A DNA stretch of 64,000 nucleotides from an uncultured virus (IMG/VR IMGVR_UViG_3300033998_000157). Taxonomy: Duplodnaviria; Heunggongvirae; Uroviricota; Caudoviricetes. Of this stretch, positions 1 through 60,849 are shown piece by piece (the stretch's first letter is position 1; each line of letters starts with the position of its first letter). The notes below the pieces were generated by a model. That model ran no database searches and was not told where the DNA came from. It was given only the letters and a program-made list of their open reading frames with translations. The translations under genes were made by a program, and so were the position numbers. The stretch lies in the IMG/VR virus record IMGVR_UViG_3300033998_000157. One strand, 5' to 3'.

Positions 1-2
1 AG

Positions 3-2384: not shown

Positions 2385-2395
2385 GGTGATTGTAT

Positions 2396-9283: not shown

Positions 9284-9304
9284 TACTTTCAGGAGGTGCG
9301 ACAA

Positions 9305-30258: not shown

Positions 30259-30306
30259 TGGCATGATAAAATATATATGTAAAAATCTTATAGGAGGTGC
30301 ATTCAC

Positions 30307-30486: not shown

Positions 30487-30490
30487 TTAA

Positions 30491-30523
30491 TGGCGGGGAA
30501 TAATTACCCGCTATTTGTTAATT
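30491..30523 (+). terminator. Hairpin followed by TTGTTAATT
   Basis: TGGCGGG-N9-CCCGCTA, then TTTGTTAATTT. Confidence 0.6.
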
Positions 30524-30545
30524 TATGTATAGCGGAGGTGTTATA

Positions 30546-31748: not shown

Positions 31749-31758
31749 GGTGTAATAA

Positions 31759-34700
31759 ATGGGAGTAAAAGATCGACTCACCCTTATTGATTTAACCGAT
31801 ACCATTAATGAGTTGCAGGTATCTCTTAATTATGATAAAGACACAATAATATATGACGCAACTGAAGGAACATATGATGTTTCTTCTATTAGTATTTCAT
31901 AGCAAGTATGGAGAAATGGTGCGGATGTTACAAGCGAAACTAATAATCTTACTTTTAAATGGTATAAAAATGATACTCTTGATTAGAGTTAGACCACATA
32001 GACATATTCGATATAGCCAGCAGATTTTTCTACTAATACTTTGAAAATCAAAATTGAAGTAACAGACGCAAAAACTAATAAAACATAGACTGCATTATAG
32101 ACCTTCAATTTATTGGAAATCATTATAGACCCAGAAATAGAATTAAGTCAGAACAACGTAGTATTTCACGAATTAGATGCCAATTCAATTACTGTAACTG
32201 GTTCTTTGAAATATAAAAATGCTGAGGTTTCTGGATAGACATATAAATGGATTGTAGATGGTGTAGAAACAAATGGAAATTCTATATCAATTAGTAAAGA
32301 TGACGTTGGCAAAGAAATAGTATTTCAAGCCGAACATAATGGCAATACATATACAAAAAAGCTTTCAATCGAACTAATACCTTAGGTAAGACAATATTAT
32401 ATTACATTATCTAAAAACACTGTAGCATATAACCCTAATGATGGAAAATTTGACGGACAAACTTCTGTGACAATAACCGCAACAGCTTTTGAAATAATTG
32501 GAAATCAAGCACCAGTTCAAAAAGCAGTATATTGGCAAATAGGAAATGGAACTAAAGATACAACAGCTTCATAGACAAAAGATATCACAGTAAGCTCAGC
32601 TAATAATATTACTGTAAAAGCTTATTTAAATTCTGATGATACAACACCTTTTGATACTGCAACTATCACTGTATTAAGTTCTTAGAGCGAAAGTTATACA
32701 TTAGTATTAGACAATGAATCATAGGTAGTATAGGCTGACGCATCTGGCAATGTATCTGATTTCACACCCGCAACACACAAAATTACTCTATTCAGAGGTT
32801 CTACAAAAATTACAACTGCTAATAAAATAAAAGTTATTGAAATTTCTGGTGGTACATTTAAAAAAGGAACCACCACATTAACTACTTCATCAACTTTAAC
32901 ATCTGACGATACAATAACGGTTTCTTAGATGTCAAGCGATGTTTAGTACATTAAATATCAGTTTGCAGATGATTAGAATATTGTAAAAACATTTGTTGTA
33001 GCTAAATCTAAGCAGGGTATAAAAGGAGATAAGGGTGATAAAGGAGATAAGGGAGATCCAGGACAAGATTAGGTAGTAAAATATTAGAAATAGTCCTCAA
33101 ATGTATTTAAGTACAATCCTAATAATGGAACATATTCTCCTAATGCAATCACAATAAGCGGTTATTCAAAAACTGGATCTAACAATCCAGTGCCTTTAAC
33201 AATTACAGTAAAAAACGGCACAACAACAATCGGCACTGGAACAGATGTGCAAATTAATATTGGGAGTGGGACGAATAATATAACTGATACAACAACATTT
33301 GATATATATGATGGTTAGACGAAAATAGACGAAATTACTCTAACTAAATTAGAAGAAGGTAAAGATACATATAGCATTATTTTAACTAATGAAAGTGTAA
33401 CATTATAGGCTGATTAGAACGGAAATGTATCCGATTATTCACCAGCAACAACACAAATTAAAATATTCAAAGGCACAATTGATGATACATCTAATTGGAC
33501 ATTATCAAGATAGAATGGAACTGGAGTAACTTCAAATTTAAACGGTAATACATTAAGCGTCACATAGCTAACCGTTGATTCATCCTACGTAGATATCACA
33601 GCGACAAAAGATTCCACAACACTTACAAAGAGATTTACAATTTCTAAATCGAAACAGGGTATTAAAGGTGACAAAGGAGACAAAGGTGATAAGGGAGACA
33701 AAGGTGATTAGGCAATAGTATATTTCATCACAGCAGATAAACAACAAGTTGTATATAACCCTAATGATGGCAAATTCGATGGACAAACTTCTGTAAATGT
33801 TACTGTTACAGCTTTTCAAGTAGTTGGTAATAATGCACCAACAACAAAATAGGTATATTGGCAAATCGATAATGGTTAGAAATCAGGTTCAGCAACAACA
33901 TCCACTACTGTAACAGTAAATCAAAACAAAAATTATGTAGTTAAGGCATATTTAAATTCAGGAGACACTACACCTATAGATACAATTACAATTTCTGTAT
34001 TATCAACTTAGAGCGAAACATATCAAATTTTGCTTGATAATGAAACAGCTTCTTTGTCATAGTCAGACACAGGTACTGTTTCAAACTTCTCTCCAGCAAC
34101 TCACACAATCAAGCTCTATCGTGGATAGACAGAAATTACTGATGCAAACACAATTGAAGTAACTAATATATCAAACGGAACATTCAAAGTAGGTACTACA
34201 ACATTAAGTGTCGGTTCTAAATTAAAATCTGGCGATACAATTACAATGTCTTAGATCTCTTAGGACAATTAGAGCATTACATATAAGTATGTAAATGATT
34301 AGAATGTTAAAAAGACATTTAATGTTTCAAGAGTAAAACAAGGTTAGCAAGGATAGCCAGGTATAAGTTAGTATAACGCATAGATTTTTGAATGGTCTGG
34401 TACTCTAAGTTTTCCTGTAAATGTTTAGGATTGGAATTAGTAGTAGAGTGCATAGACAAAATGGACTTTTGATTAGGTAAATCCTATCACACCTGTTATT
34501 GAAATATGGATTAAAGCATAGGATCCAGAAGGTGGAGTTAAAGTAGGTTTGAACGGAGTCGAATTAGGAACAATGAATATTGCAAGTTATGGATTGCCAG
34601 ACAACTCAATTGCTTGGTTTAAATTTTATGCAGATCAAACTGTTTTTAAAACTGACCAACAAAACGAATTAAGAGTATGGTCAACCACAGCTGATGGTGG

Positions 34701-37065
34701 TTCTGTTTTAGAAGTGAAAATTTATCCAACAGGAGTTAAAGGAGAACAAGGTAATCAAGGTGAATAGGCTTACACATATTTCATAGTAGCTGATAAAAAT
34801 GCAATAACATATGATCCAAATAATAATACTTTTTCTTAGACTTCTGTAACATTTACTGGTAAAAAACAAAGAGGAAGCGAAGCTTATGTTACATCTAATT
34901 CTTATTATTGGAAAGCATTCAAATAGAGCAATTTAACAACTCCTATATAGGAAAAAGTAGATTAGAAAGCAACAACATTTACAGTAAGCGGAATAAATAA
35001 TATTAAAGAAGACATTATTGTTAAAGCAAGCACACATAATGGTTCTAATTTTGATACATATATAGTAGATACAGTAACCATACCTTTTATAGTCAATGCA
35101 GAAAATTCATTTACAATTGTAGCTGATAATGATAATGTAAGTTTCTCTTAGCTCAATGACGGAACTGTAAATGATTACAGCCAAGGTGGCGGAACAATTT
35201 ATCTATATCAAGGTTCTCAACCTATTAGTGGAAAAACAATTACAGTAACAACTGAAAATATCTCTTGTTCATTAGGTTCTTCTTTTACATCAAGTGCAAG
35301 TGGAACAACATATACCGTAGATAACATGACATAGGATAATGCAAAAATTACTTTAGAATATAAAGAAGGCTCGACAGTAAAATAGAAAAAGGTTTTAACT
35401 TTTACAAAAGTAAAAAGAGGTCAATCGCTTTTCATAGTATATCATGACAACGATGTATTTAATACTCCACCAAAACCGACTGGCGATGGTACAAATGATG
35501 GTTGGCATTAGAACGCAACTCCTACATCAAATTGGATGAGTACAAAAGTGGCTGATGATATAACATTAGGTACATGGAGTGATCCTATACGAATAAAACC
35601 GATTGAATTTTCACAAGAAAAGAAAGTCGAATAGCCAACAATAGTAAAACTCATATAGAAAAATGGTAATACTCTTACTCTTGATAATACACAAACAACA
35701 ATAAGATAGACTGTTTGGAGAGAAGAACAAGAAATTAATTAGAATGACACAAATGGCGGAAGCAATAATATATGTAATTATAAATGGTATTTTGATGGAG
35801 TTGAAAAAACAGAATATGAGGATAATCCTGAAATAACAATTACAAGAGATGATATTACAAAACAAGTAAAAATAGAGTGTGAATAGAAAGAAAAAACTAA
35901 GGTTTATTATTAGAAAGGTAAATTTATATATTAGGATAAAACAGAAGATTATGGATTAGTTACAAGAAATGATGGAACATTGATTGCTACTATAAGAGAA
36001 GACGATGTGCCTATTGATGAAATGGAAAGTATATAGGTAGAGGAATAGACAACCAATTTAATTTCCAATTTTGATATTACTACTTGGTTTAAAAGTAGTT
36101 ACAGTAAAACATAGGTCAAAATACAAAATGATGGAATTTTCAATCAAAATTAGTATAAACTTGAATCAAATGGAACTGGATGGGATCCATTTTGGAGTAT
36201 TTCAATAGAAACAGGTTAGCCTCTATAGAACAGAACATTTACATTTTCTTAGTATGTAAGAAGCGATAAACCTGAAACTTAGAAATTTTAGATGTATTTA
36301 TATAACGCAAGTACAACTGATGTTAAAGCCAAAACTTATAGTATTTCAAAAGAGTGGCGTAAATACGAACTTACATACACGTTTAAAAGCACTACAACAG
36401 ATACAAGTTTTAACTAGCGTTTTGATATAGGCGAAGGCACAGCAAATACAGACGTGTTTCCTGTTGGCGAGCATGTTTACGTATGCTGTTATCAAGTAGA
36501 AGAAAAAAGTTTTTAGACTTCATTTATAAAAGGAACGAGACAATCAGGAATCATTCAATTAAATAACGCAATTAACTCAGAAGATTTAGTAATAAGTTTA
36601 TATGCTAAATATCAAATGCCATTAGATTATGATATAAGTGTTGAAAAATTATTATTTTTTATAAATTCTAATTTGTCTGGTAGCTGGAATGCCGGAGCTT
36701 TCCGTTTTTACGCAGATAATACAAACCCGCGAATAGTTAACCTAGATTATTGGGATTCTACAAATACATATAAAAATGCAGTTGGAATTAATGGAAATCC
36801 TTTGTATCAATTAGATAACAACTGGCATCATTATGTTGTAATTTTTGATAAATCAAACAAAGGCGAAATAAGATATTATGTAGATGGTACATTATATGGA
36901 AAAACCGCTGGATACGACGTATTAGGTGTAGGATTACCTATGTTTTTTCTTGGGAACGGCAATTGGCTTACATCAAATCTTTATATAGATACATACGACA
37001 CAAACAAATGGACAGATGACTTCATCAAATACATCTACGAAAACAAAATTAAATTAGAATATTGA
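31759..37065 (+). CDS. Long tail fibre with Ig-like repeats, collagen-like linkers and a C-terminal LamG-like domain (~1768 aa)
   Basis: GDK/GXY runs (~33015-33065, ~33655-33710); internally duplicated blocks; WHHYVVIFD...YVDG; joins track ORFs 34549 and 36616. Confidence 0.8.
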
Positions 37066-37070
37066 AATCT

Positions 37071-37101
37071 GCTGGGTAAACAACCCAGCTCTTTGTTAAT
37101 T
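37071..37101 (+). terminator. Hairpin followed by TTGTTAATT
   Basis: GCTGGGT-AAACA-ACCCAGC, then TCTTTGTTAATT. Confidence 0.7.
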
Positions 37102-37134
37102 TATATATAGAAAAAACAAGCGAGGTGAAATAAA

Positions 37135-40100
37135 TTGAGCCGAGATAGCATTGTCATTTATGATATATCTGATTCAATGTCTGATTTGACTGTTGCTTTG
37201 AATTTCAATCCAGATGATTCGTTTAAATATGATTAGGTTTTAAACGCAACAACCCCAAATCAAATAACTATAACATAGGTTGTGTATTGGAACGGTTCTT
37301 CTGTAACTCCTGATGGAAGCGGAAACCAACAAGGAGATTATGGATATAATTGGTATATTGATGATAATTTACAAACAGACCATTCAAATTCTTTAACTAT
37401 AAGTTCTTAGGGAAAAATAAGAGTTGAAGTATATCATAAAGGAAAAACTGCTTAGGTAACTTACGTAGTAGATCAAAAAGATATTTCAACATAGCCAACA
37501 ATAAAACTTAGTGTCCCTGCAATAGTATTTAAAGAAGGGGATACTTCTACTACTCATAATGTAACTTAGCAAGTGTTGTATAAAAACCAAGATATAACAA
37601 ATTCTGCATAGGTTACTGACAAAAAATGGTTCAAAGGAACTACACAAGTCGCGACTGGAAACTCAATAACAATTAATCACACGTATATTAATTCAGATGT
37701 TAAATTCCAATGTAAAGTAAATGGTGTAGTGTATGAAGAAATTTTAAAAGTTACAGAAGCACCAAAAGGAGATCAAGGACCACAAGGACCTGCTGGACCT
37801 CAAGGACCACAAGGACCCAAAGGTGATAAAGGAGATAAAGGGGATAAAGGAGATACAGTATATTTCTTTGCAACAAAAAATTTAATTGAAATTCCAGTTA
37901 ATCAAGACGATAGTAAAGATTATAGCAATGCATATGTTGATGTAAAATACTTAGTTAATGGTACTTAGCAAAATATTAGCATATCAGTGTCAGCAACATC
38001 TGGTATAACAACATCTATTTCTAATAATGGAACATCTTCTCCACGAGTAAACATAACATCATAGAACAATAATGGTGAAATTACTATTTCATATAGTACT
38101 TATAATATAAAAATACCAGTTGCTTTAAACAAAGCAAGAAATATTGCACGAGTAGTGCAAATTGAACCTATTAATGGAACTATTATTAGATCTTATAATG
38201 ATACTCTTTCTTTTAAATCGAAACTTGTAGATCTAAATGGTTCTGTATCTTATATTTCTTAGAATTGGAAATTGTTAGATACAGACGGAAATGTACTTAA
38301 AAATTTCGGCACTGCTTAGCAAGTAACTGTAACCCCAACAGATTATACATATCATTAGGTATTAGAATAGAGTTACAATAACACAAAATCATTTATTGAT
38401 GTTTTTGATGCATATGATAATTATATTGTACAAATTACTCCTTTAAGTGGCAGTGTAGTTCAATTTAGAAAAGATGGAACTGTATTCCCGACTGATGGAA
38501 GATTAACTTTCTCTTAGAAGATATATAATGCTTCAACAACTCAATTACAAAACGCATAGAATTTTAATTATAACTGGACAGTAGAACCAGAACCAGATGG
38601 AATAAATTCTATATTATATGCTGGAACATCGCCAGATCCAGCAGAAGAAAGTTGGTTGTATATCAACGATCCAGCTTAGGATACAATTGAACTTCAAGTA
38701 TCATATGGATATAACGATACAATTACTCTCAAGTGTGAGGTTACAGATCCTGCTAATGGCAATAAATATTATTAGTCTTATCCAGTGCAAGTAGTTAGAG
38801 ACGGTGAAAGTTAGAGTTATGTAATTATAGAAAGCAATAATGGTTTTGCTTTTAAAAACGGAAAAGAACCTGCTTCTATTACATTTACTTAGAAATATTT
38901 TAGAGATAGTACAGAATTAGCATTTGAAAATCCTGCAGAAGTAGAATGGTATGTGAATAATTCGCTTAAAAGCACTGGACCTCAAGTTACTCTAACACCA
39001 TAGGATTTTCCAAATAAAGTAAATTCTCTTAAACTCAAATATAGAGAACTTAGCTATACACAAACTGTAATTGATTTAAATGAAAATATAAAAGTTGAAA
39101 TAGAAAGTTCTAATGGTAATACATTTAAGAATGGAAATATTTCTACAACACTAACTTAGAAAACTTTTGAAGGATAGGTAGAATTAACCAGCGGATTAAC
39201 ATATCAATGGTATAAAATTCAAGACGGTAGTAGAACTTAGCTATCAGGAAACACAGCACAAACATTAGCTATCAACGATTCAGATGTAAACAAACAAACA
39301 ACTTTTGAATGCGAAGTAACTTACAAAGGATAGAAATATAAAGGTTCTATAACAATTCTTGATATTACTGACGCATATTATATAAGTGTAGATGTGTCTA
39401 ACGCAGAAACAAATTATGATGGAACTATTTTTGCACCTTAGTCCGTAACTATCACTCCTTCACTCTTACAAGATAATAATGTAATAAGTACTACATTCAC
39501 AATATATAATTAGAATGGAAGCTCGTTAGGTACAGTATAGTCAGGTTCTTAGAAAACCATAAATTATACAAGTATATTCTCTGCTTCAGAAAGAAAAACA
39601 ATTAAGAATCAGAAATCTTTAATTGTTAAAACAACATATAATGGAAAAGTATATTCTCAAAATGTAGTTGTATCAATGAGTAATTCAAACTATACATGGC
39701 TTGAAAATTGGAAAAATAAAACAGAAATTACAGATGACTCTATAGCTACAGGTAAATTCTTTGCAGGTCAAAAAAGTGGTGAAAAATTAACTGGTATATA
39801 TATTGGAGATACTACAACAACAACTGGTAAAACATATGACCCTGGTATTACTTAGGTAAAAGATAATAATGAAAGATTTTCTTTAAAAGTTGGCGGAGAT
39901 AGTCATGTATATCTAAACATAGGTGACAATACAAATAATTATTTAAAATATGACACAAAAGATGGCGTACTTGAAATCAAAGGAAAAATAGAAGTAAAAG
40001 AAGGTTCTAATGTACCTACCATAAGCGAATCAGGAGTAGCCTTACCAGAAGGTGCAATTGCTTACTTTGCAAATACAATAATAGATATTCTCAATGAAAC

Positions 40101-43100
40101 AGTGCCAGAAGGTGTTGATGATAAGGCAAAATTGTCAGCTTAGGGATATGGTTTAACAGTATAGGAAAGGAATATTTAGGCTTTATACGGTCATTCAAAT
40201 GATTTTACAACAATTGATGGCGGAAAAATTTACACAGGATCCATTACATAGGATTAGTTGGATTAGACTTCTATATTTACTAAAACATTTACCCTTAAAG
40301 ATGGTGGTTAGCTTGTAACAGATGGAAAAACTGGATATAAAAGCGGTGTAGGAACCTTTTTAGATAAATCAAGCTTCGAAGTCTATAAAGATACAAATAC
40401 ATATTTTAGATTTGACACAACAAATGGAATAGATCTAAAAGCTTAGGGAGTAACATTTAATTCAAACGGATTATCTATGACAACAGGTTCTATAAATCTT
40501 GGAAACAACAAAATCAACCTTAATAATGATGGTTCTGGACAATTAGCTGGTGGGAATATTACATGGGATACAAGTGGAAATGTAACAATAATAGGTACTT
40601 TAAAAATCGATTAGAATACAACAGTAACAGCTTATGCAGATAATAAATAGTCAACAGCACAAACAAATTAGGAAACAAATATCAAAAATTTATATGGTCA
40701 TTCAACAGATAAAACTAAAATTGATGGCGGAAAAATATACACTGGCAGTATAACTTAGGATAAAATACAAACAGGAACAATCACAGTTAAGCAAATATCA
40801 AACTCTTATGTTACAAATCTATTAGACTATTCAATTTGGAAAGATTATTTAAATAATGTAAATGGAACAATTGGAGATTTTTATTTAAATGGAACAGCCG
40901 ACGAAAATAACATAACTTACGGAATAACACCGTATGGATATAAAGATTATATTTGGGAATGTATTCCTGATTCTGAAAGTGGGCCTGATGGAGGATGGAA
41001 TACTTCAAATTTACCATAGGATCCAAGAAAAAAATATAGAATTTCATATTTTGTAAAAAGAAATAAAATGGGCAACGGAAAAACTTATATAGGAACAAAT
41101 AATGATGGCACTATAGCAAGTTTATCAGGTAGCGTAAACACAAATCCATATTTCATGTATTCTTCTAATTTTGGTAGACCCGACGAATGGTATCTTGTAG
41201 TTGGTTATGTATTTCCATATGATTAGGACACTTCCGTTATAAATGAAGGTGCAATTTATGAAGTATCAACAGGTAGAAAAATAGCTTCGACAGGTGCTTT
41301 TAAATTTAAAGACGCAACTGTTGGTCATATAAAACAAAGATAGTATTTATTTTATTGTACAGATACAAGTGTAAGGCAATATTTCTATATGCCAAGAATA
41401 GATGAATGTAATGGTAATGAACCTTCAATAGATGAATTGTTATATGGTGATTTTTCTAAACCAAACAGATGGTATGCAAGAAGAATGCCAAGAGCATATA
41501 ACTCTTCTGAAATATAGAATATGGAAAAATATTGGAAAGAAGAAGAATAGATAGATTAGACATATGTACATGATTCTATAATAAATAAGCAATCTTCTGG
41601 AAATGATATATTCGGAGATGTGCATGGATATATAGGAAGATTTACAACTTATGTTTATGTAAAGCGAGATACAACTTTATCAAATTTAACATTCTATCAT
41701 GATGATCCTGGTAAAATTTTTATAAACGGAAAAGAAGTTATATATGGAAATTCATGTTGTTCTAACACAAACGTTTCTTTAACCTTCAAAAAAGGTTGGA
41801 ACAAAGTTGATATATACTATTGGGAAAATACTGGAGATCATGGGGCTGGTATTGTAGATTCTAATGGTAAAACACTTTCTCAATTAGTTGATAAAATGCA
41901 ATAGGCTCCAATGTCAGAAACTGTTATTGATGGTAATTCTATTGTAACTGGAAGTGTAAGATAGGAACATATTGATGTAAATAATTTATTTGCACAACAA
42001 ATAGAATTAAATGGTAACATTCACAGTAATGGTCATTCTAATTTTAGTGATACTGGTGCTGGTTTTTGGCTTGGAAAAGATTCAACTCAATACAAATTTG
42101 TAGTTGGAAATAGAAACGAGTAGAAATATCTTGAATTTGACGGCAACAAAACATATTAGGCAGGAGATATATTTGGGCAATTTATTGGTGATGCTTATTT
42201 ATATAATACTGAATTTAAAAAAGATCCGTAGTTCGGTTCTGAGCCAGGAGAAATCATATACGATTAGAATTTACAACAAATGTACAGATATCCAGATACT
42301 GGTTTAGAATTGTTAAAAACATTTGGTTCAAACCAACAATATATATTATAGTTACAAAACATATAGATACAACCATAGAACCAATATTAGCCTCAAACAG
42401 GTTCCAATGGCGTTTCATCATACACAACAGTAACAACAAACAATACATATACTACAATAACATCAGGTTCAGATTAGCCTTTTTATAGAGTTGCAGTTAG
42501 AGTTTATAAAACATTCCCAGCAAACTATTTTAAGGGTGAAGCAAGTGGTCAAAAAGTATATCAAACATTAATATTTGATTTTTCTGATAATGTTTTATAT
42601 GGTGCTTATACATCATCAACAAATAAAGTTGCAGTAAAATATAATTCTACAGACAGAAGCGTAACTGTGCAATTACAAAATTCTTCTGGTACTGCTATAA
42701 AAACTGTAACCAAAAAATAGAGAGCTGATATAGAAAAAATTGATTTTAGAACATTCGCATAGGTCAAAAAAACTTCTAACACAGTAGATAATGGTATGTC
42801 CTATACATTTACAACAAGAGATATGGGACATTAGTTAGTTCAAATTCAAGCTGATCCAGATGCAGCACAAGAATCTCTTTCAAAATTCAATAAAACATCA
42901 GTAACAAATAATGTATATGGTATCGTTAAGTAGAGAACATTTGATGGGGTTGCTACATAGGCTTATTTTGCTGATTTATAGGAAAAATTATGGTAGGACG
43001 ATAACTATAAATCAGGTACTCCTGTACAACTTAAAAAAGGTAAATTCACTAAAGCATACAACCCATGGAAAAAAACATGGATAGTATCAACAAATCCAGG

Positions 43101-43314
43101 AGTATTATTAGGAAAAGGTAGAAAAAATACTATCCCAATAGCATTACAAGGGACAGTAGAAATAGAAGGAGATTTTGAAATTGGAGACGAAATTTGCTTG
43201 AATTTAAAAGGAGAACTCAAAAGAGTAAGTTATCTTGATAAATTGTTGTTAAAATATATAATAGGAAGAGTGGTATATAAAGATGAAGAAAAAACATTGT
43301 TGCTAATATATTGA
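37135..43314 (+). CDS. Long tail fibre with collagen repeat, Ig-like repeats, PA14-like domain and putative C-terminal chaperone domain (~2059 aa)
   Basis: GAGGTG RBS and TTG start; GPQ/GDK run (~37765-37855); repeated [24 protein letters not shown]...[26 protein letters not shown] 43312-43314. Confidence 0.8.
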
Positions 43315-43324
43315 GGTGATATAG

Positions 43325-45388
43325 ATGTAGATTCTTTCGAATGATATAGTAACAATTTACTCATAGACAGGATTAAATGATGGCGTCCCAGCGAATACAA
43401 CTATCGCTGGGGCTAAAACTTACACATTTAATTCTGATTATGAATATTCATCTGGTGTACTTGAAATTAAGGTTAATGACGCCGAAGGTGGTATACGTGT
43501 TGGTTTTAATAATGAAGAATTAAGGGTTTTAAAAGATGATGACGTCGCAACAACAACTTATACAATTAAACTGCCTCGTATAATTAAAGGAACAAATACA
43601 ATACATATATGGTCTGTTAGCGGAGACAGATAGTCAGTAAAAGAAATATTTGTTAAAGTTGGAGTTAAATAGTAGATAGCAAGAAGTGGCAAAATAAACA
43701 GAATTATACAAAAAGTTCAATAGTTATATAATTTTTATGGAACTACAACGATTGAAGGCGTTTCAAATTTGCCTCAAATACCAAAATTGGTTGGCAAAAA
43801 AACAAAAATAGCCAAATCAAAAATAGACGAAGTTAAAAGTTTTGTTTCATCAAATTTCGGAAGCTTTACATGTCATTATGATAGCGAAACAATTATTAAT
43901 GATGAAGTTCTAAACCAAGTTTATGCAAAAATTAAAAATTATTTACCAAATTAGGGTTGTTATGTATGCGATTATTATAACACTTGCTCGTGCGATAACA
44001 CATGTAATGCATTTTCTTGTCAATGCTATATATAGAGATATGGTCACGCAACATGTTATTGTAATAATAGTTAGCATGGTTATTCTTGTTCGTGCTATAA
44101 TGTATCGTATGGAGGTACTTGTGATTGTTTTTACGCAACATATGATACATGTTATTGTCATTATGCTTGTTATCAAGATGGTGTAACAAGATGTCAATGC
44201 AACGGGACATGCGACTCAGTAACTACATGTTCTTCTGGGCTTTATTTGTGTAATTGTAATGGTGTGTGTGATACAGATAACGGGTGTTCTTGTTTCTTTG
44301 CATCAGATGGAGATACATGTAGTTGTAATTCTGGTTGTAACAGTGGTTACTCAACTTGTTCTTGTGATTACACATGTTATGGTTATTCTGTCTGTAGTTG
44401 CAATAGTAGATGCTATTTGTATTCTGGTTGTAGTTGCAATAATACGTGTCATGGTTATTCGACTTGTTCTTGTAATTATACATCTTATAATTCTCCATGT
44501 ACATGTTTTTTGTAGTGTTATGGATATTCTGATTGTAGTTGTAATAATACATGTTATTCTTACTCCAGCTGTAGTTGCGATAATAAATGTTATCGTTATT
44601 CTGGTTGTAGTTGCAATAATACGTGTCATGGTTATTCTTGTACTTGTAACGGCAGTTGTAACTCTGGTTATAGTTGCATGTGTAATGAATAGTGTTATAA
44701 TGACGATTCTTGTTTTGGATACTCTGATACAATATGTGATTGCAACGGCACGACATACACAATTGGGTGTGATTGTAACGGAAACTATATGATTGATGGT
44801 TGTTCGTGTGACGGCAGATGTTATGTTTATGACTTAACATGTGGTGGAGGAGCGTGTTATAACTATAACAAATGTTCATGCGATAATGAATGCCATGGTT
44901 TTATTTGTTCTTGTGATATTGCGTGTTACGGTTATGATCCATGCGATTGTGACATGAAAGCTTATAACTATAGTTGTTCATGCGATTATAAATGTTATTC
45001 ATTCTCATGTTAGAAATGCCATTCTGCTAATTATTCATGTAGTTCATTCACTTATAATTGTTCATGTGATACAGCATGTTATGCATATGAATATTGTCCG
45101 ACACATAACACGTGTTCAAACTATAGTGAATGTTAGTGTTATTCGATTTGCGACAATGATTAGTCTAATCAGGTTCAAACTTGTTCCAGTTATTCTGAAT
45201 GTGCATGTTATAATTTAAGTGACAGTAGTTGTTATAGCGATCATGTGTGTTCTTCAGACGGAACAAATTCTTGTCCAAACAATACTGGTTCCGATTTATG
45301 TCAAAGTTATTGTGGTACGTTTACAAGTTAGGGAAGTTCTTAGGTAACTTGTTCTATTGATGGTTTAAGTTGTACAGTAGGAGGATAA
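43325..45388 (+). CDS. Cys-rich repeat protein (687 aa): beta-rich N-domain plus ~475 aa of CxCxxxC(Y) repeats
   Basis: GAGGTGA RBS and ATG-TAG start; joins track ORFs 43769, 44246 and 44789; repeats such as CSCDYTCYGYS and CSCNNTCHGYS; TAA 45386-45388. Confidence 0.85.
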
Positions 45389-45415
45389 TATTAATAACAT
45401 AAGGAGGCGACCAAC

Positions 45416-47014: not shown

Positions 47015-47031
47015 TAAGGAGGGTCGCGACC

Positions 47032-47295
47032 ATGAATTTTGACGTCAAATTTCAAATCAACGAAGATGATTTAACACAATATATAACAGAGTTCTTGTTT
47101 GTTGATAGAAGAACTTATTACGAATATTCAATTATATTAGACAAATATTACATTTTAAGTCCTTATCCAAAAGATTCATAGATAACACTAATATTAAACG
47201 ATCAAGTAATTTTTGACAAAAACACAAATGTTGATTTTGAAATTGTTGTTAGGGAAACAGGTTCAACAGTAAGAATAAGAATTAACAAATAGTAA
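47032..47295 (+). CDS. Hypothetical protein (87 aa), last gene of the Cys-rich/radical SAM unit
   Basis: AAGGAGG RBS and ATG 47032; ends TAG-TAA just before a terminator. Confidence 0.65.
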
Positions 47296-47328
47296 AAGCT
47301 GGGTAATTAACCCAGCTTTTTGTTAATT
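47294..47328 (+). terminator. Intrinsic terminator fused to TTGTTAATT
   Basis: AAAAGCTGGGT-AATTA-ACCCAGCTTTT, continuing into TGTTAATT. Confidence 0.85.
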
Positions 47329-47361
47329 TAATATAGAAAAGAAAAAAGAGAGGTGTTCTAA

Positions 47362-50300
47362 GTGTCTATTTTCATAAACGACTATAATGCTATTTATTCT
47401 TTATTTAGCAAAGTAGTTCCATATTAGGGGTAGAAATATTCTCAGTTGATAGAACCAGCGACAACTAATTTGATTGGTAATGGAGATCTTACTTTAGATT
47501 CAAATTAGGATAATATTCCAGATTTTTTCAACCCTGCTACTCTCACATATATAAATGATAGTGATATCTTCTCTAAAAGTTATCAGGTGCTAAATTTTGC
47601 AACACAAAAAGGGTTTTATGTAAATATCACAAACAAATCTACTCAGGTAACATCTTATTCATAGTTGCAAATATATTCAAATAATTTCAATATTTCATAG
47701 AATCAAACCTATACACTTTCATTTGAAGCATTAAATAATAATGCTACTATAATTGTTTTTGCAGAAGTATATAATAGTTCTAACACATTATTACAAAATA
47801 CGCAATTAAACTTATCAGAAGTATTATCAATGAATGATAATTCAAAAATATACGCAGGAACGTTTACAACTCCTGCCAATTCTTCTTATGTAAAATTCAA
47901 GTTTCAAATTCAAATACCTCAAAAACAAAGTGGTAATTCATTAATCAATCACATTCAATTAGAAAATAGATCTTACTGGACAACATTCTAGAGTCCTTCA
48001 AAACCAGCTGGGTTAATAATCACAGATTTAGGCGACCATGTTTCTTTAACAAACACAGGATATTTCTATATTCCACCTTCCAAAAAACAAAATTATGATG
48101 CGGTTCTCATTTCTATAGGAAAACCATTTAATAATAATAGTATTACATTATATTTTGAAAACTCATATTAGACATTAGCTCTAAAAGTAATAGATAATAC
48201 AGGATAGATATAGTATGAATATCATAATATTTCATATGATCCTTCGTGGAATTTCTTTTAGCTTGCTTATCAACAAAATGGTTCAGGCATGGATATTAAA
48301 TTATTTATCAATAGCACAAAGGTGTTAGAACACAATATTGCTTCTATTAATTGGGATTACGATAATTAGTCATTTAAAAAAGCATATATAGGACATAGTT
48401 ACTCAGGTTCTACATAGGTAAATCAATTAAATGGTTTTGTATCTGCACTTAGAGGTATAGGTGGATATTTCACTGATAGCAAAATTCTTGATATATATAA
48501 CAACCAAAAAATATATTCTTCAACAAGAAGTTTAGTAAGGTCATAGGAAGTAAACGCAACAATGCTCGGAGGTCTTTCTCCAACGGAATTTGCTACAGCT
48601 ACACATTCTCATGATGATAGATATTACGTTAAAGCCGAATAGGACGACAGGTTTGTAAATGTAACAGGAGATACAATTACAGGGTCTTTAACAATAGATG
48701 GTTCTCTTTCTGTAAAAGGTGGAATAAATACAAATAATACAGATATTACAGTTAATAATGTAAATATAGTTGATCCAGGGCCAGGCGAAGGTATTAAATG
48801 GCTCGCTGGAAACGGGTGGGCTATATATGAAAGCCCTAATGATTTAACAACAAACAGTGCTGGTAATTTACAATTTGTAAAAGGAAGTTCGAGGATACTT
48901 ACATTAGACACAAATGGAGATGCAGAATTTACAGGGAATATTATAGTGCAAAAAGACATAAAAACTGGTGCCGATACTTTTATATGGACTAATAATAGCG
49001 GAAGCGGTTATACAGGATTTTGGGATCAAAAAAATTCTAAAATTTTACTCAAAGTAACTGAAGGCGGAACAATTCAATTAGGCGATTAGAATCAAAATTA
49101 GTCCGTAAGTGTGTTAGGTTCATTAAATATCAAAACAAGTGGTAGTTCTAATTATATCAGTATTTATACAGAAACTGGAACTTAGAAAATTGCAGATACT
49201 TTTGCAGATACAACTACACATAAATCATATATATATTTCTATCAAGTGTCAGGTTCAAATGACCCTGCATATATAATGCACGAGACATCAGAAACTGCAG
49301 GTGAAGCAAACGAAGGAGTATTACATTTATGTCCTTCTGATGATAATGCATATGGAGATTATGTTTCTATACACGGAACTAATGACCCAGATGTATTAAA
49401 GCTACATACAGACGGAACTATAGAAGGAGTGAAGAGTTTAACTGCTTCTGAATTAATTAAAGGAAAAACTTTGCAATCTACAGTAGCTACAGGAACTGCT
49501 CCTTTAACAGTTTAGTCAACTACTGTAGTTACAAATTTAAATTCTGATATGTTAGATGGATTACATTCATCATAGTTTTTAAGCAGTAATACAGATAGTG
49601 AACAAACAATAGGCGGTAAAATATTTTACTTTAATAATGGCGAAATGAAAATAAACGTGGATCCAAGATGGAATTCTGATAGTGTCGGTACTAATAACGG
49701 TAATTTACATATATGGGCAACAAAAGCTGATGGAAGTACTTATGGACAAGCAGGTATAGCTTTATATAACGGTACTAATGGAAAATATCACTATATAATG
49801 GCACAATCTGGATATTGGACAAGATTTCAAAACCCTAATGGTTATATTGATATTGGACCATCAAATACATTATATGCACATATTTATACAGATAGACCTG
49901 CATTTTATTTTAATAAAGAATTGTATGTAAACAATAATATAGTATGGCATTCTGGAAATGACGGACATACAACAGACAATTCTGGGCCAGACGCAGATAT
50001 GTTAGATGGTATGCAACCTTCATCTTCAAACACTTAGAACACTATTGTTCAAAGAGATGCTTCTGGTAATTTTTCATAGGGAACAATAACTGCAACATTA
50101 AACGGTAATGCTTCTACATAGAGCAAACTCGCTACTTAGAGAACAATTAGTTTAGGCGGAGATTTGTCTGGTTCAGCAAGTTTTGATGGTTCTTAGAATA
50201 TAACAATAACCGCTGATGTAAAATACACAGTAATTACAGAAACATTAGCAAATTAGTTATAGTAGAATACAAACCATGATGTTTAGAATGCAAAATTCGA

Positions 50301-50439
50301 AAGTGGCGAAATAACAGTTGTTAGAGATGGAATACATCAAATTGAAGGAATTGATTACATAATAGTAGATTAGAATACTATAAAATTTACTTATAGCATA
50401 CCTTCCGGATCTGTTATTCAATATAGATACATAGGTTGA
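47362..50439 (+). CDS. Tail fibre protein with CBM/LamG-like N-terminus (~1025 aa)
   Basis: GAGGTG RBS and GTG start; IEPATTNL; HSHDDRYY; VATGTAPLTV*STTVVTNLNSDMLDG; GNAST*SKLAT*RTI; TGA 50437-50439. Confidence 0.85.
49307..49445 (+). repeat. 139-nt exact repeat, copy 1
   Basis: Identical by eye to 59504-59642 (encodes NEGVLHLCPSDDNAYGDYVSIHGTNDPDVLKLHTDGTIEGVKSLTA). Confidence 0.85.
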
Positions 50440-50451
50440 TGAGGTGATATG

Positions 50452-52842
50452 ATGGCAACACTTACAAGTGTAAAATAGGGAAATTGGAATGATCCAACTG
50501 TTTGGGATTAGGGAAGAGTTCCAACCACAGGCGATGACGTAGTTATCAATCATGACGTGGTTTATAATATAAATGATACAAATACAAGATTAAATCTTAT
50601 AACCATAAATTCAAGCGGTGTATTAAGACACGCAGAAGGAATACAAACTGGAATATTTGTATGGCGATTAGATATAAAAGGCGGGGAATATAGAATGACC
50701 CCGCTCTCTTATCACAAGATATATAGAAACAATTCATATGATGACGCAAGTACAGGTAGAATTTGGCTTTATACAGACAATAACGGAAAACTAATTATGA
50801 AAGGTGATGTTTAGGAGGCATATACTACATTAACTTAGCAATAGAACGTTAATCAAGCTTATCTACAAGTATAGGATTCATCTAAATTTTCTATAGATGA
50901 TATCGTGCTTGTATATAAAGATACAAATTCTATATATGACGAAGAAGACGAAGCTTTCTTTGTAAATTATGTAGAAACTGGAAAAATATATATGAGAAAA
51001 TTAGTTGGACCAAGCGTTACATTAACATAGAGTTAGAACGCCGGATAGACAGTAATTTCAGTAGATAATTAGAGAAAATTTCTCGACGTTAAGTATGCGA
51101 TAGTTTATAATTCAAATAAAGTAATAACGATAAATTCAGTAGATGTAATAAATAATAAATTAAATGTAAATTAGCTTCCGTGGACTTTATCTTCTGGAAC
51201 AGTATTATACGAAACAGGTTTTGATAAAACTCACAGTAATGGAACAGAAGTATATAGACTATAGGCTACTTTAACTTCATAGATAAACTCTGGATAGACA
51301 ACTATAACCGTATCTGGTGTCGGAGGATTTGCTATAGGAGATGAAATTTGGATTGAAGATACCACGTGGAGTGGAGAAACAAGACGTGAAGGTTGGTTTG
51401 CTACAATTTCTTAGATTAATGGAAAAACTTTGACTCTGTCAAATATTTTTAGAAGAAATTATCAAACTATTACAAATCTTTCCAATATAGATAGAAATAT
51501 AGAAAAAGGATAGTTAGTTGTAAAAGTGAATAGAAATTGTGTTGTAGAAGGCGAATTTGGAGATGGTGGACCACATATTCATGTTCATTATACATCTTCA
51601 TACACAAATAGAATAGTAGATATTCAAGATGTTCAATTCAAAAATCTTGGTGGTTGTGACCATTATTATTACAGAGGAATAAGAATTAGAGGGTATTTTA
51701 ATGGTTCTAATGGATATGTGAAATTTCAAAGAAATTCTTATATAGACCTAAATAAAAAATGGGATTGGGACGGAATAAATTTCTGGACTTAGTATTGTGG
51801 TATTAGACCGATTAGAGCTAATTTTATGTGGGGTTCACAATTTAACGGCATGGATGGATCTCATCAAAGCGGTGCATGGTATGGAAATATATCTTAGTTT
51901 ACTAATAGTATAGGTATAAGAACTGTTTATAATAATGACGCATTTAAAGTTTCGTATAATATAGTAACGCAATCAGGTTATGGATTATTTGTAAACGCAC
52001 ATTATTCAGAAAGAATTCCTAACATGAGAACAGACTACTGGACTAATAAAGTTGAACACAATATATTTAGGTTTGTTAGAGATTTCATCTATATGGATGT
52101 AAATGATAGAGGCACCCAATATTCATTTAGAAGAATACATTTGTACAAGCCGTATTATTAGCCAGTACATCCTTTATACAACAACGAAAAAACATTCATC
52201 ATTGATAGTATTGTCGAATAGCCTGCAAATCCAAATCCAGATAGAACTGGTGGTTATTAGACAACTGGTGACAGAACATATTCTAACGTTGGTATAGTAT
52301 TCTTAAATCAAGATTTCGAAGGTAAAACAATTTGGTATAAGGGTAGAAGTGTATATTATTTAGAAGATCTGAACGGAAGACCTATAATTAGATATAGAAA
52401 AAGAAATACAGGAGAATGGGATGGGTTGATTCAACAAGTATATTTGACAAAAGGTTCAAAAGTTATAGTGCAAGGGAATTTAAAAACCACGACAGATTAT
52501 AATGGATCAACTCCAAAAATAAGAGTATTTTCACCATTCTTTGACAATCCACAAGATTTTACTATAAGCAATTTCGCGAAAGGTGCATGGATACATTACA
52601 AACACGAATTTACATAGCAACATAACGGATTTTATTTTATCTCGCTTCTATTTAATCATGATAACAAAGATGTATGGCTTACAATACCTAACATAAAAAT
52701 ATATGGATATGAAGCTGTTCAAGTGTTTTTGGATGATCAAATTGTTGCAAACATAAGAGAAATAGCTCATTTTGATAGAAATATTAATTTCACGCAAGCC
52801 TTTGGAATGAAGCTAAAGGGCGGATATTTAGGAGGTAGATGA
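50452..52842 (+). CDS. G8-like domain / putative beta-helix tailspike (796 aa)
   Basis: MATLTSVK*GNWNDPTVWD*GRVPTTGDDVVI is G8-like; VVKVNRNCVVEG...IQDVQFKNLG follows the G8/beta-helix pattern; TGA 52840-52842. Confidence 0.7.
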
Positions 52843-52843
52843 T

Positions 52844-55399
52844 ATGCCTACTAATGTTAGATTAGTCGATGGACAAGAGTTACAAATATTCAGTTAGGGA
52901 AACTCAAAAGTTTCTTTATTACGAACTGAATCAGATAGATTTTCTATATTATTCGGTAATGATCCTTCTTCTGCTACAGAAGTATTCTCTGTATCAGATT
53001 AGGATAATGATATTATTCTTTCTGCTGGTACTGACTTATTCTTTGAAAGTAACGCAACTATTGGTGGAGTAACTGGTTCAACACTTAATATTGGTAAAAC
53101 TGGAGATACTATAAATCTTAATATACCAAATGTTACATACAATGTAGGAAATATGAGCGGTAATTTGACCTTAGATGGTCAGTTATCGCTCAATGGTGTT
53201 ATTAAATTCGATGGAACTCCTACTACAACATCACAAAATTTAGGTATCGAATGGACTGCTTTCGATAAAGAAGGAACAACTGATTTTTCAGACACAGCAC
53301 ATATTAAACACGTTGTAAATTCTGGCGGATTATCAGGTTCTGTATTAGAAATAAAATCAATGAACGACACAAATGATGGTATTAATTTCGTAACTAATGG
53401 AAATAATAATGTAAGAATAAACGGAAATGTCATTTGGAATTAGGGGAATGATGGAAGTGGTTCAGGATTAGATGCCGATTTATTAGATGGCTTACACGCT
53501 TCATCTTTTTTAAGAAGCGATTAGGATGATACTTTGTCTGGAAAAATCACAGTAACTGGTTTATTAAGATTGCAAGGACAACATGATAATGCAGATGGTT
53601 CAGATAGATCTGGTTATTGGTAGTATGATGGTAATGTAGCTTTGACATTAGAGCCAACTTCTGATAATGGAGCAGTTGCTATATTATTCCCTTCATATGG
53701 AAACAAACCTTCTGATTTTGCATATATTGTGTATGATGAGGACTACTTAGATAATGGAGAAGGCGGAGCTTTAATATTAGGAGCAGAAAATGATGGAACT
53801 GGTAGTTCTGACCATGTAAGAGTAAAAAGTAGATTTGTAATTGAAGCAGATATGTCATCCTATGACCCAACAAACGCTTTTACAATCGAACAATCAAAAA
53901 ATGGAACGGTATTAATGAATGTTCAAAGAGATGGAAACAAATAGTATATTAAAGCAGGTACATATAATGTTATCTTTGAAGGTAGAAATACATGGGACGC
54001 TGATGGATCGACAATATATCCAACCATACATGGTTCGCACCAAGATGAATGGGTAATGTTACATTTCCCACATGTTCCATATCTTGAAAATGGCAAAGGC
54101 GGTTATAATGGTGTTACATTTGGATAGAGGGTTAGATTTGCAGCCAATGCTAACACACCCACTTACTGGGATTAGGGTATTTAGAGTTCAATAGGTTCTG
54201 ATAAATTTTCTATTTCAAGAGGCGGAAGTTCTACATAGTTCTTGTAGATAGACAGTTCTGGTAAAGTAGGTATAGGCAAAAACTCACCTTCTAAAACATT
54301 AGATGTATCTGGTGATATTCAATAGAGTGGTCAAATTATTTCAACCGTTTCTACTGGTACAGCTCCGCTTGCTGTAAGCAGTACAACAACAGTATCAAAT
54401 CTTAGTGCAGATATGGTTGATGGAGTACATTAGTCCAGCTTAGTTCGAAACGACACCACAACAACTATAAGTCACATAGGTCCATGGTTCAAATATACTG
54501 GTACGTCAGAAGTTATATTAGCAGAACACACTAACGGTGGTCCAGTTCCATTCTAGTTAAGAAAAACTGGAGATACTGGTACATCAGATTCATATGGAAT
54601 TCTCCATTTAGATAGAGGGAAGTCTGAGAATGGCCAAGGTTCAAACTTGTATTTCAGATTACTTAATGGTTCTTCGTATGAAGAATTTGGTGGAATTGGT
54701 TAGAAAAAAGTTGATGATAATAATGGAGAACTACAATTTTTGGTAAGAACTGGTGGGACAAGTAGAGTAAAAGTTGGATATTTTAACAAAGATAAATATT
54801 TGGTTTTAGAAAAAGGAATGTTAATAGACAACTCATAGCCTTATTTAAGAGTATGGAACACAAACAGCGGAACTTAGGATTTCTATTTTGGTGAAAGTTC
54901 AAGTAACGGATATGGACTACATTTATATTGGGATAGTGGATATACCACATATTGGAAGTCAAGGCACGCTGGTACAGATACAAATGTATTTCATATAGAC
55001 ACACGTTCTCCGGACCTTATAATGGATAGGCAAATTCAAACTAATACAGGTTCTTCTGGCGGTATTAAAATAGGTAATAGTATATTGTCTTCTGTAGATG
55101 GAAATGAATTAGTAATATACAAAACTGATCAGATAAGAATATCAGATTCAACATCATGGGATTATAACCAATGGGCTGGAATTAAATATGAATCCTCTAC
55201 AAGAAAAATGTATATAGGTGGTCCTTAGAGTTCTAAATTCGATAGTAATACAAACCCTCAAACAATGTAGGCTCTTGTATTAGATTAGGTTGATCAATTA
55301 GAAGCTTAGAATACAGATGCAACATTTAAATCTGTAACAGTTGGAAGTTTTCAAATTCAAGCCGATGCTGAATCGATAGATTTTGTGTATATGGGGTGA
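52844..55399 (+). CDS. Tail fibre protein (851 aa)
   Basis: IWN*GNDGSGSGLDADLLDGLHASSFLRSD; GKVGIGKNSPSKTLDVSG; VSTGTAPLAVSSTT; TGA 55397-55399. Confidence 0.85.
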
Positions 55400-55403
55400 T
55401 TGA

Positions 55404-58304: not shown

Positions 58305-58317
58305 GGGAGGTCAAGAT

Positions 58318-60849
58318 ATGGCTGAACTAAAGGCAGGCACTACCATAGGTGGATATAGGTAGTTGCACGAAGGGATTTCTAATCCTACATTAAATTCAGA
58401 TACAACAATTAATGCAAATTTAACAGTAAATGGAACAACTACTGTAAATGGTGAAATACATTTTGATGACGTTTCTCGATATTGGCTTTCAACTTAGACT
58501 AATTGGGGATTATATTGGGATACTTCAACCAATCAATTAAAATTCAGAGGTTCTGGTTAGGATAAAGTAATAATAGATTTGGACGACGGAACCACAGAAA
58601 TAAAAGGAGTTGCAAGCTTAACTTATTCATCTCAATATCCTTTAAACATTAATGGTTCTGATGACGGAAAAATTGTTTTGCAAGGATCTTCTAATCCTTA
58701 CATTAGATTTAGAGAAGGAACAACTGATAAATAGTATATTCAATGGAGTTCAGGTGGTTATTTACAATTCAGAAATCAAGAAGATGGGTCCGGATTAAGA
58801 ATTAGAGATTCAATTGATTTTACAAAAGACGGAACAACATGGTATTCTGTTTGGCATTCTGGTAACCATGGTTCAAACAGTGGTCTTGATGCTGATTTGC
58901 TTGATGGACAACATGGTTCATACTATACAAATTAGTCAAATTTAAATGCTGGCACAGTTCCTACAGCAAGACTTTCAGGAACATATAATATAAGTATTTC
59001 TGGTAATGCTTAGACATAGAGTAAATTATAGACTTAGAGAACGATTTCTTTAAGCGGAGACGTATCTGGTTCGGCAAATTTTGATGGTTCTGGAGACATA
59101 ACTATATCGACAACTGTTTAGGATAATTCTCATAATCATTAGATAAGTAATATAACATGGGCTTCGAGTCAAAATTTAAATTTAACATAGACTGAAAATA
59201 ACTTAGAGTGGTCTATAGATATGAGACCAGATAGCTATACAGGAACTTACTTTCAAATATGGTCAAGTACTAAATCCACAGTGCTAAAAGCAGAACATGA
59301 TACTGGTTATGTTACTATTCCATATAAATTGATAATAGGTTCCACAAGCACTAATCATATAGAATTATATACAGAATCTGGCACATAGCAAATAGCAGAT
59401 ACATTTGCTGATACAACAACCTATAAAAACTATATATACTTTTATCAAGTTTCAACTTCAAATGATCCCGCATATATCATGCATGAAACATCTGACAGCG
59501 AAACAAACGAAGGAGTATTACATTTATGTCCTTCTGATGATAATGCATATGGAGATTATGTTTCTATACACGGAACTAATGACCCAGATGTATTAAAGCT
59601 ACATACAGACGGAACTATAGAAGGAGTGAAGAGTTTAACTGCATCAGGAACAATTACATAGACAACTTTTACAGGTTCATTATCTGGTAATGCTTCAACT
59701 TAGAGTAAACTTGCTACTTAGAGGACAATTACATTATCAGGTGCGGTAACTGGTTCTGCAAGTTTTGATGGCTCTTAGGATATTACAATTTCTACGTCAG
59801 TTAATCACAATCACGACAGTTCTTATGTAAATGTTACTGGTGATTCAATGTCTGGAACCCTTACTGTTCCTACTCTTCAAATTAATGATAGCAATACTAA
59901 ACTTGTTGAAGGCGGTGAAAACTCCGTTAGAATACAAACAAATAGCGGATATATAGATATAGGTCCTCAAAATACATCTTGGTAGCACCTTGACACAGAT
60001 AGATCTAATTTTTATTTTGGAAAAAGCATACATGTAAATGGAAATATATATGCCTATAACACAAGTTATTATTTTAATGGAAGTTCATTTAATTTTCCTG
60101 GCGGAACTGTAAATGGAACGCAAAAAATCACAGGCGATTTGGATATGGATGAAGGAACAATTTACTATGTACGTGAAATTCGATTTGATTGGACATCAAG
60201 AAGTTATAATCAAGAATATCATTCTATTGTAAGTAAAAACGCATCTGGTACTTTATCTGATGCTATAAGAATTAATAGCTATGGTGACGTTGTAATTAAT
60301 ATAGATTCAAACAACAATGGTACTAATACATTTTCAATATATAAGCACGGAGGAACAGGTTAGATAAGTTCTTCATATAGGCTCTTCTATGTAGATGAAA
60401 GTGGTTATTAGTACGCAACTAAAGTATATGGTGCAGTATATAACGATTATTAGGAATATAGAATTGGAAAAGAAGAAATTGAGGCTGGATATATAGCTGT
60501 CACAGATAATGATGGAAAAATTAAAAAATGCGATAAAGATAGAGCAAGAAATATTGCAGGTGTAGTTTCTGATGTATTTGGTTTTGCAATTGGAGAAGTA
60601 GATGGAGAAATCAATATACCGATATAGGTTGCAGGAAGAGTGTTAATTTATTAGTAGAACAAGGAAAAATTAAAAATTGGCGATTAGGTATGTTAGACAA
60701 AAGATGGACGAGCAAGAAAAATGAAATGGTGGGAAAAAATTATTTTCCCAGAATAGATTGTTGGATATGTTGATGAAATACCAGATTACGAAGAATGGGG
60801 TAACGATAAAATCAAAGTAAATGGTAGAGTTTGGATTAGATTGAGGTGA
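58318..60849 (+). CDS. Tail fibre with putative C-terminal intramolecular chaperone (peptidase G2-like) domain (843 aa)
   Basis: MAELKAGTTIGG; VWHSGNHGSNSGLDADLLDG; two SKL(A/*)T*RTI repeats; KVYGAVYNDY*EYR...AGVVSD...PI*VAGRV; TGA 60847-60849. Confidence 0.85.
59504..59642 (+). repeat. 139-nt exact repeat, copy 2
   Basis: Identical by eye to 49307-49445. Confidence 0.85.

Follow-up and report, generated by a model that had tools for sequence, protein, structure and literature searches.

TAG as a probable alanine codon in the virion genes of an uncultured low-GC phage

Introduction

Reassignment of stop codons in phages is described, in the accessible text of the Borges preprint, as TAG to glutamine (Gln) or TGA to tryptophan (Trp) only. 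The available parts of the phAss-1 paper and of Cook 2024 treat TAG as Gln as well, the latter stating that the TAG assignment of the Lak phages had at first been left open. Here we analyze the codon TAG in a stretch of 64,000 nucleotides (nt; hereafter the window) from an uncultured virus of the Caudoviricetes, IMG/VR record IMGVR_UViG_3300033998_000157. As judged from sequence comparisons, TAG is very probably an ordinary alanine (Ala) codon in this phage, with termination at TGA and TAA only.

The reading of UAG as Ala, with an alanine-type tRNA(CUA), is established in the green-algal mitochondria of Hydrodictyaceae and Neochloris, according to the accessible text of PMC6821328. For phages, the available part of a 2025 preprint (bioRxiv 10.1101/2025.10.30.685624) reports that, of 29 phage tRNA(CUA) assayed in an E. 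coli cell-free system, tRNA_CUA-151 alone inserted Ala at UAG and the other 28 Gln or lysine (Lys); in the same part, its authors call the relevance of this Ala-inserting tRNA unclear. No genome-level report of TAG as Ala in a phage was found, that preprint being alone on the topic, in a search that did not cover subscription journals and bioRxiv supplements. In the window, Ala emerges as the predicted meaning of TAG from four tests (paralogs, 265 homologs, 35 viral loci, and a curated profile), each of which ranks it first, with serine (Ser) as the nearest rival.

Results

TAG as a sense codon in the window

The window has a GC content of 25-33%. Frames of at least 100 codons, counted from stop to stop, cover 0.28 of it under genetic code 11, compared with 0.97 when TAG is taken as a sense codon and 0.38 when TGA is. 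The number of open reading frames (ORFs) of at least 150 amino acids (aa) rises from 8 under code 11 to 26 with TAG read through, and the proteins opened in this way include those of 2,294, 2,521, 2,059, and 1,768 aa. The 23 long ORFs contain 639 TAG among 19,982 codons (3.20%), all of them in frame, and end with TGA in 13 cases and with TAA in 10, never with TAG. In nearly every virion gene of the window, TAG is read through and acts as a sense codon. It is as frequent as the four GCN codons (N, any nucleotide) together (656 codons, 3.28%), and amounts to about half of the alanines. The two Gln codons are present in a similar number (636 codons, 3.18%). Composition alone decides nothing, because Ala and TAG taken together vary in their share from gene to gene in the window.

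The window is the virion module (baseplate and tail fibre) of a low-GC, TAG-recoded phage; besides the baseplate, protease, and radical SAM genes described below, family searches recognized in it several tail-fibre-like proteins in a series. No near match to it was found among GenBank phages, and the exact patterns of the window ends, used in IMG/VR to search for the remaining genome, gave no match. Baseplate queries for close relatives returned either no match or loci of only 22% identity. No match to a release-factor family was obtained for any ORF submitted to Pfam or PHROGs.

Codons paired with TAG in the internal repeats

An earlier sequence-only reading had pointed out that the repeats of the phage itself carry GCN and TAG at equivalent positions, and the examples it gave are correct, including their coordinates. 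The repeat-rich tail protein (31759-37065, plus strand, 1768 aa, 72 TAG, with collagen-like GDK runs) contains a duplicated K-?-V-Y-W-Q-I block (the question mark denotes the compared position), with GCA at 32524-32526 in one copy and TAG at 33850-33852 in the other. The sequence S-K-L-?-T is encoded with GCT at 50131-50133 and 59713-59715 and with TAG at 59029-59031. It belongs to a longer motif found once in the tail fibre 47362-50439 (plus strand, 1025 aa, 29 TAG), at 50098-50160 (N-G-N-A-S-T-TAG-S-K-L-A-T-TAG-R-T-I), and twice in the tail fibre 58318-60849 (plus strand, 843 aa, 27 TAG), at 58996-59058 and 59680-59742; the TAGs of T-TAG-S-K-L and T-TAG-R-T-I are retained in all three copies. 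The minus-strand coiled-coil-like ORF 21002-21202 (66 codons, TAGs at 21158-21160 and 21041-21043) reads LE-TAG-KI-KL-LEAKI, with the TAG at 21041-21043 as had been noticed; the motif is short and coiled-coil-like, and of little weight alone.

For a systematic paralog test, all ORFs were cut into 120-aa pieces and aligned to all ORFs, with self-matches excluded. A paralogous position was available for 105 TAG sites, the partner being TAG at 44 of them, a Ser codon at 22, GCN at 20, and a Gln codon at 2. Pairing of TAG with TAG is enriched 8.7 times. GCN codons account for 27 of the 159 non-TAG partner codons (GCA 13 and GCT 12), compared with the 6.4 that the codon content of the aligned regions predicts; since the repeat families were counted pairwise, the pairs are not independent of one another. 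Log-likelihoods were calculated with substitution rows taken from these alignments themselves. For the TAG row, Ala gives the best fit, with Ser 27.6 and Gln 59 log units lower; without the cysteine (Cys)-rich repeat ORF, the differences are 3.3 and 48 log units, respectively. The repeats alone reject Gln, and separate Ala from Ser weakly.

The earlier proposal that TAG acts as an Ala codon in a long-established code agrees with the outcome of this test. The further suggestion, that TAG entered through codons such as those of Ser, glutamate (Glu), or Lys, does not: the codons one step from TAG (TCG, GAG, AAG, CAG, TTG, TGG, TAY) are not enriched among its partners (7 versus 15.4 expected), although Ser codons, taken as a class, rank as the second commonest partner.

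Residues opposite TAG in homologs and profiles

In the tail fibre 58318-60849, compared with the best 120 of its 902 database homologs, Ala is the commonest residue at 15 of the 27 TAG columns. Its two N-A-x-T-?-x-K-L-x-T-?-R motifs contain four TAGs, opposite which Ala is found in 73/108, 57/101, 71/105, and 53/101 homologs, and at the TAG of the D-Y-?-E-Y motif Ala is found in 21/33. Two standard-code tail-fibre loci (L002 and L003) have Ala opposite both motif TAGs of the tail fibre 47362-50439.

The cleanest ortholog test is provided by the G8-domain-like protein (50449-52842, plus strand, 797 aa, 22 TAG), which has full-length orthologs and, as a query, gave no match in the bacterial and archaeal genome collection. 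P0275, an NCBI-annotated protein read with the standard code (47% identity), has Ala at 10 of the 22 TAG sites, Ser at 3, and Gln at 1, while P0274 (49% identity) has Ala at 11 and Gln at 1 (binomial p of ~1e-6 for P0275, at 7.1% Ala, and ~1e-8 for P0274). Ser occupies 1-3 of the 22 sites in these two orthologs. The more distant P0276 (24% identity) has Ala at 7 sites, glycine (Gly) at 5, and Gln at none. In P0274 and P0275 the share of Ala at the TAG sites equals the overall identity of 47-49%, as is expected only if TAG stands for Ala. The composition of the orthologs also matches: Ala plus TAG make up 5.6% in the window and Ala 6.0-7.1% in the orthologs, with Gln at 2.6% and 2.5-2.8%, respectively.

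A pooled column model, trained on the known residues of 265 database proteins and scored on 92-119 TAG columns, placed Ala first in all four settings. Relative to Ala, the scores with all hits were -15.8 and -8.3 for Gln and -17.4 and -12.0 for Ser; with the hits of at most 5.5% Gln, they were -29.0 and -12.2 for Gln and -18.1 and -11.4 for Ser. As a control, each modelled amino acid (19 of the 20 or all of them, according to the setting) was assigned to itself, and the result was the same after recomputation without the Cys-rich ORF and the stop-containing pieces.

A codon-level alignment to 35 IMG/VR loci, from which the Cys-rich ORF and the stop-containing aligned pieces were excluded, gave 718 codons opposite TAG. 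Ala is represented by 185 (enriched 3.5 times), Ser by 157 (2.2 times), and Gly by 96, and Gln is outside the eight commonest residues.

The baseplate wedge protein (Baseplate_J-like; 17823-18986, plus strand, 387 aa, 14 TAG) was recognized in family searches by the curated profile phrog_6, which offers a test independent of database translations. Its score depends on the residue put at TAG: 82.0 bits with Ala, 77.0 with Ser, 74.2 with tyrosine, 73.9 with Glu, 72.9 with Lys, 71.9 with Gln, 70.5 with Trp, 69.0 with the unknown residue X, and 66.3 with either Gly or leucine. With threonine (Thr) the match fell under the reporting threshold.

A provirus with an alanine-type tRNA(CUA)

The C-terminal 206 aa of the tail fibre 58318-60849 show 37% identity to a protein of IMGVR_UViG_3300002494_000025 (G001; the same DNA as L126), a 135-kb contig described as a provirus in IMG/VR; three TAGs of this region face TAG and one faces GCA. 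The phage part of G001 has a GC content of 27-31% and is rich in in-frame TAG. At the contig ends the GC content is 41-44%, and most ORFs have no or one in-frame TAG.

G001 has two tRNAs in all, a tRNA-Ala(UGC) and, 170 nt downstream, a tRNA(CUA), directly followed by a transfer-messenger RNA (tmRNA). The tRNA(CUA) folds into a cloverleaf with a 7-bp acceptor stem (G1-C72, G2-C71, G3-U70), the discriminator A73, and an Ala-type D arm, and is identical to the adjoining tRNA-Ala(UGC) at 50 of 76 positions. The three RNAs stand in a row at 118483-119200 of G001 (1501-2190 of L004), and alanyl-tRNA synthetase (AlaRS) should charge all of them. An Ala-type tRNA(CUA) within ~800 nt of a tmRNA is seen again in the metagenome contig L122 (757-1999).

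When TAG in the PhoH protein of G001 is translated as Ala, the score against Pfam PF02562 is 113.0 bits; Ser gives 107.3 and Gln 103.3. In the alignment of this protein to PDB 3b85, Ala is found at 4 of the 6 TAG sites. In the terminase, compared with T4 gp17, the TAG sites are occupied by small residues and none by Gln. On these alignments, Ala is the best-fitting meaning of TAG in G001. The provirus is an example of the mechanism in nature; it is no proof for the phage of the window.

Occurrence of alanine-type tRNA(CUA)

The strict pattern of an Ala-type tRNA(CUA) was found at one locus, that of G001, in 2.9 million IMG/VR contigs, at five loci in metagenome contigs (G001 among them), and nowhere in the genome collection. 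With a loose D-arm pattern, IMG/VR gave 108 matching stretches; the 80 loci listed contain 89 tRNA(CUA), none of which combines G3:U70 with A73, and three of which have the G:U pair with another discriminator. The metagenome loci of the strict pattern encode no proteins shared with the window.

One of the metagenome contigs, L125 (29 kb, GC ~44%; 1-10767), is TAG-recoded: its frame coverage rises from 0.57 under code 11 to 0.97 once TAG counts as a sense codon. It has an Ala-type tRNA(CUA) at 10001-10076, and an ORF of 2,101 codons that contains 66 TAG and, close to the end, a D-D-D-G-D motif. As to the meaning of TAG in L125, there was no phage match, and a single weak PHROG hit (24 bits) belongs to a family of unknown function. 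L134 had been considered as a recoded relative of the window on account of 12 in-frame TAG; these stops arise from spurious antisense matches of the Cys-rich ORF, and L134 is covered to 96% under code 11. No tRNA was found in the records holding L134 and L157.

Alternative readings of TAG

Several observations weigh against reading TAG simply as Ala. No tRNA of any kind was detected by ARAGORN in the 64-kb window, and the decoding agent is thus unseen. G001, which carries a suitable tRNA, is otherwise unrelated, as it matches the window in radical SAM genes and at the tail-fibre end and nowhere else. Tail-fibre-like proteins with much Ala, Ser, Gly, and Thr supply most of the evidence; the G8 ortholog and the baseplate profile are the non-repetitive checks. 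In the paralogs, Ser codons are partners of TAG about as often as Ala codons are. In the homologs, Ala is the consensus in 37 of 92 TAG columns (40%), compared with 85 of 117 GCN columns (73%), and the TAG columns are richer in Gly, Ser, and Thr. In an Ala/Gln repeat protein of L125, some TAGs occupy Ala-like positions and others Gln-like ones.

The best surviving alternative, although an improbable one, is that TAG is read as Ser by a Ser-type suppressor tRNA, since seryl-tRNA synthetase (SerRS) is also blind to the anticodon. Ser is the runner-up on phrog_6 (77.0 versus 82.0 bits) and in the paralogs, where it is only 3.3 log units lower once the Cys-rich ORF is left out, and Ser codons are enriched among those opposite TAG in the viral loci (157/718). 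Against this, Ser is disfavored in the homolog columns (-11.4 to -18.1) and in the orthologs (1-3 of 22 sites, versus 10-11 for Ala), and motif positions at which 53-73% of ~100 homologs have Ala are TAG in the window. The paralogs also give TAG a profile unlike that of Ser, as Ser columns pair with Ala in 3% of cases and TAG in 17%.

We give marginally less credit to mixed decoding of TAG, as Ala and another small residue, or to a non-canonical amino acid at this codon. The variability of the TAG columns described above and the excess of Ser partners would be consistent with it, and decoding may not be purely Ala. TAG may equally be found at more tolerant sites, and this would produce the same variability; the likely reason for such a distribution is that the change from GCN to TAG needs 2-3 substitutions, passing through other amino acids. 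Substitutions at TAG follow the pattern of a small neutral residue, Ala clearly leading, and the Pfam and PHROG searches of the submitted ORFs revealed no pyrrolysine or selenocysteine machinery.

The reading of TAG as Gln (genetic code 15), as in the published TAG-recoded phages, is very unlikely, even though code 15 is the only TAG reassignment in the accessible text of the phage surveys and close database relatives seem to favor it. P0122-P0125 and P0129, the closest relatives of the baseplate protein, have Gln at most TAG positions. P0273, the nearest relative of the ORF at 50449, has it at 15 of 22 and, in addition, at 7 positions where the window has a GCN alanine. The Gln content of the close relatives is 8-11%, compared with 2-4% in distant standard-code homologs, and the recoded proteins stored with Gln at the TAG positions (P0155, P0273, P0002, P0006, P0122-P0125, P0129) contain 6.5-11% of it. 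P0155 is a stored copy of the 851-aa tail fibre of the window itself (52844-55399, plus strand, 21 TAG) and has Gln at 21 of 21 TAG. Of six short gene fragments from another source (44-80 aa; two clusters), three could be placed, and these stop immediately ahead of a Gln in the long call. Because of this inflated Gln content, the fragments ending at those residues, and the phage's own protein with Gln at every TAG, the Gln in the close relatives is an artefact, produced by gene calls that translated the TAG of recoded phages as Gln; removal of the Gln-rich hits strengthens Ala in the column model. The remaining comparisons are unfavorable to Gln as well: it is present at 1 of 22 TAG sites in each of the orthologs P0274 and P0275 and is encoded by the paralog partner at 2 of 105, scores -48 to -59 in the paralogs, -8 to -29 in the homolog columns, and 10 bits under Ala on phrog_6, and its share would reach 6.4% in the window if TAG were added to it. 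That the TAGs are true stops, in pseudogenes, assembly errors, or programmed fragments, follows from a code-11 reading only and is hardly conceivable, since frames of 2,000-2,500 codons are open only with TAG readthrough, homologs align straight across the TAGs, and TAG is retained at equivalent positions in paralogs and in another phage.

Other genes and features of the window

Two genes of the window are nearly free of TAG, with one each: that of a ClpP-like head maturation protease (24946-25611, minus strand, 221 codons) and that of a radical SAM protein (45416-47014, plus strand, 532 codons), located inside the tail-fibre cluster. The latter has a Cys-rich C-terminus and directly follows the gene of a 690-aa tail protein (43316-45388), which consists largely of Cys-rich repeats with units of the C-S-C-x-N-x-C type. 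In G001 (26735-31837), the homologous tail-fibre end likewise precedes two radical SAM genes. This suggests that the radical SAM protein is a maturase modifying a tail protein. A minus-strand antisense ORF of 218-315 aa runs inside the Cys-rich repeat gene (43932-44879), accounts for misleading antisense tblastn matches to other phages (L134), and is most likely an artefact of the codon periodicity of the repeat.

The giant tail proteins 31759-37065 and 37135-43314 contain repeated modules, immunoglobulin-like by eye only, which are separated by short collagen-like runs (G-D-K and G-P-Q triplets). The 2,521-aa protein (9275-16840), possibly a tape-measure or tail-tip protein that includes a lytic domain, matches the 'endolysin' family phrog_20474 (76 bits) at residues 2140-2330.

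Discussion

We consider it likely, with slightly less assurance than for the assignment of the codon itself, that the window represents a natural phage code in which TAG stands for half of Ala, probably driven by AT pressure and enabled by AlaRS, used in at least two otherwise unrelated phages and hidden by code-15 gene calls. The low GC content of 25-33% is a plausible driver, because TAG would be the only Ala codon with a single G or C.

AlaRS recognizes the G3:U70 pair of the acceptor stem and not the anticodon, G3:U70 and A73 being its determinants. It is blind to the anticodon, and a tRNA-Ala with the anticodon CUA is therefore chargeable by a bacterial host without a new enzyme. The phage would encode, outside the window, a tRNA with the anticodon CUA on a tRNA-Ala body, which the alanyl-tRNA synthetase of the host would charge through G3:U70, ignoring the anticodon. 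Once expressed, this tRNA would outcompete release factor 1 and make the TAG-rich virion genes translatable, and the nearly TAG-free genes, those of the radical SAM protein and of the ClpP-like protease, would be independent of it.

If this is true, natural phage codes are more varied than described; annotation tools offer Gln and Trp tables only. To our knowledge, there is no NCBI translation table with TAG as Ala for viruses or prokaryotes. Database proteins of such phages would carry Gln in place of Ala, at ~3% of residues and half of the alanines in the present case, and errors of this kind would make structure prediction and homology searches less reliable. Which amino acid a recoded phage adopts could depend on the synthetases that ignore the anticodon. 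The phage tRNA that inserts Ala at UAG in vitro would gain a biological setting, and studies of how phage and host switch codes would have a natural, heavily used Ala suppressor system.

The window shares with the code-15 phages (crAss-like, Lak, and the phAss-1 group), as far as these are described in the accessible texts, the concentration of TAG in virion genes, the use of TGA and TAA as stops, the presence of a few nearly TAG-free genes, and a host presumed to use the standard code. It differs in the meaning of TAG, which would be Ala and about half of all alanines, and in the expected route, namely an AlaRS that recognizes G3:U70 and is blind to the anticodon in place of a glutaminyl-tRNA synthetase (GlnRS) that accepts the CUA anticodon. 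G001 resembles the window in its low GC content, in being TAG-recoded, and in a tail-fibre C-terminus with coinciding TAG positions; TAG fits Ala best in G001 too, and G001 carries an Ala-type tRNA(CUA). Beyond the shared module, it has no detectable similarity to the window. For tRNA_CUA-151, the tRNA alone was tested, without genome-level evidence, according to the available part of the preprint (bioRxiv 10.1101/2025.10.30.685624). The mitochondria of Hydrodictyaceae and Neochloris, in the accessible text of PMC6821328, show the same reassignment, for which the argument likewise came from conserved positions; their alanine-type tRNA(CUA) is most similar to tRNA-Ala(UGC). Theirs is an organelle code, fixed after the loss of UAG and a change of the mitochondrial release factor, whereas the virus of the window presumably has to use its code in a cell for which TAG remains a stop.

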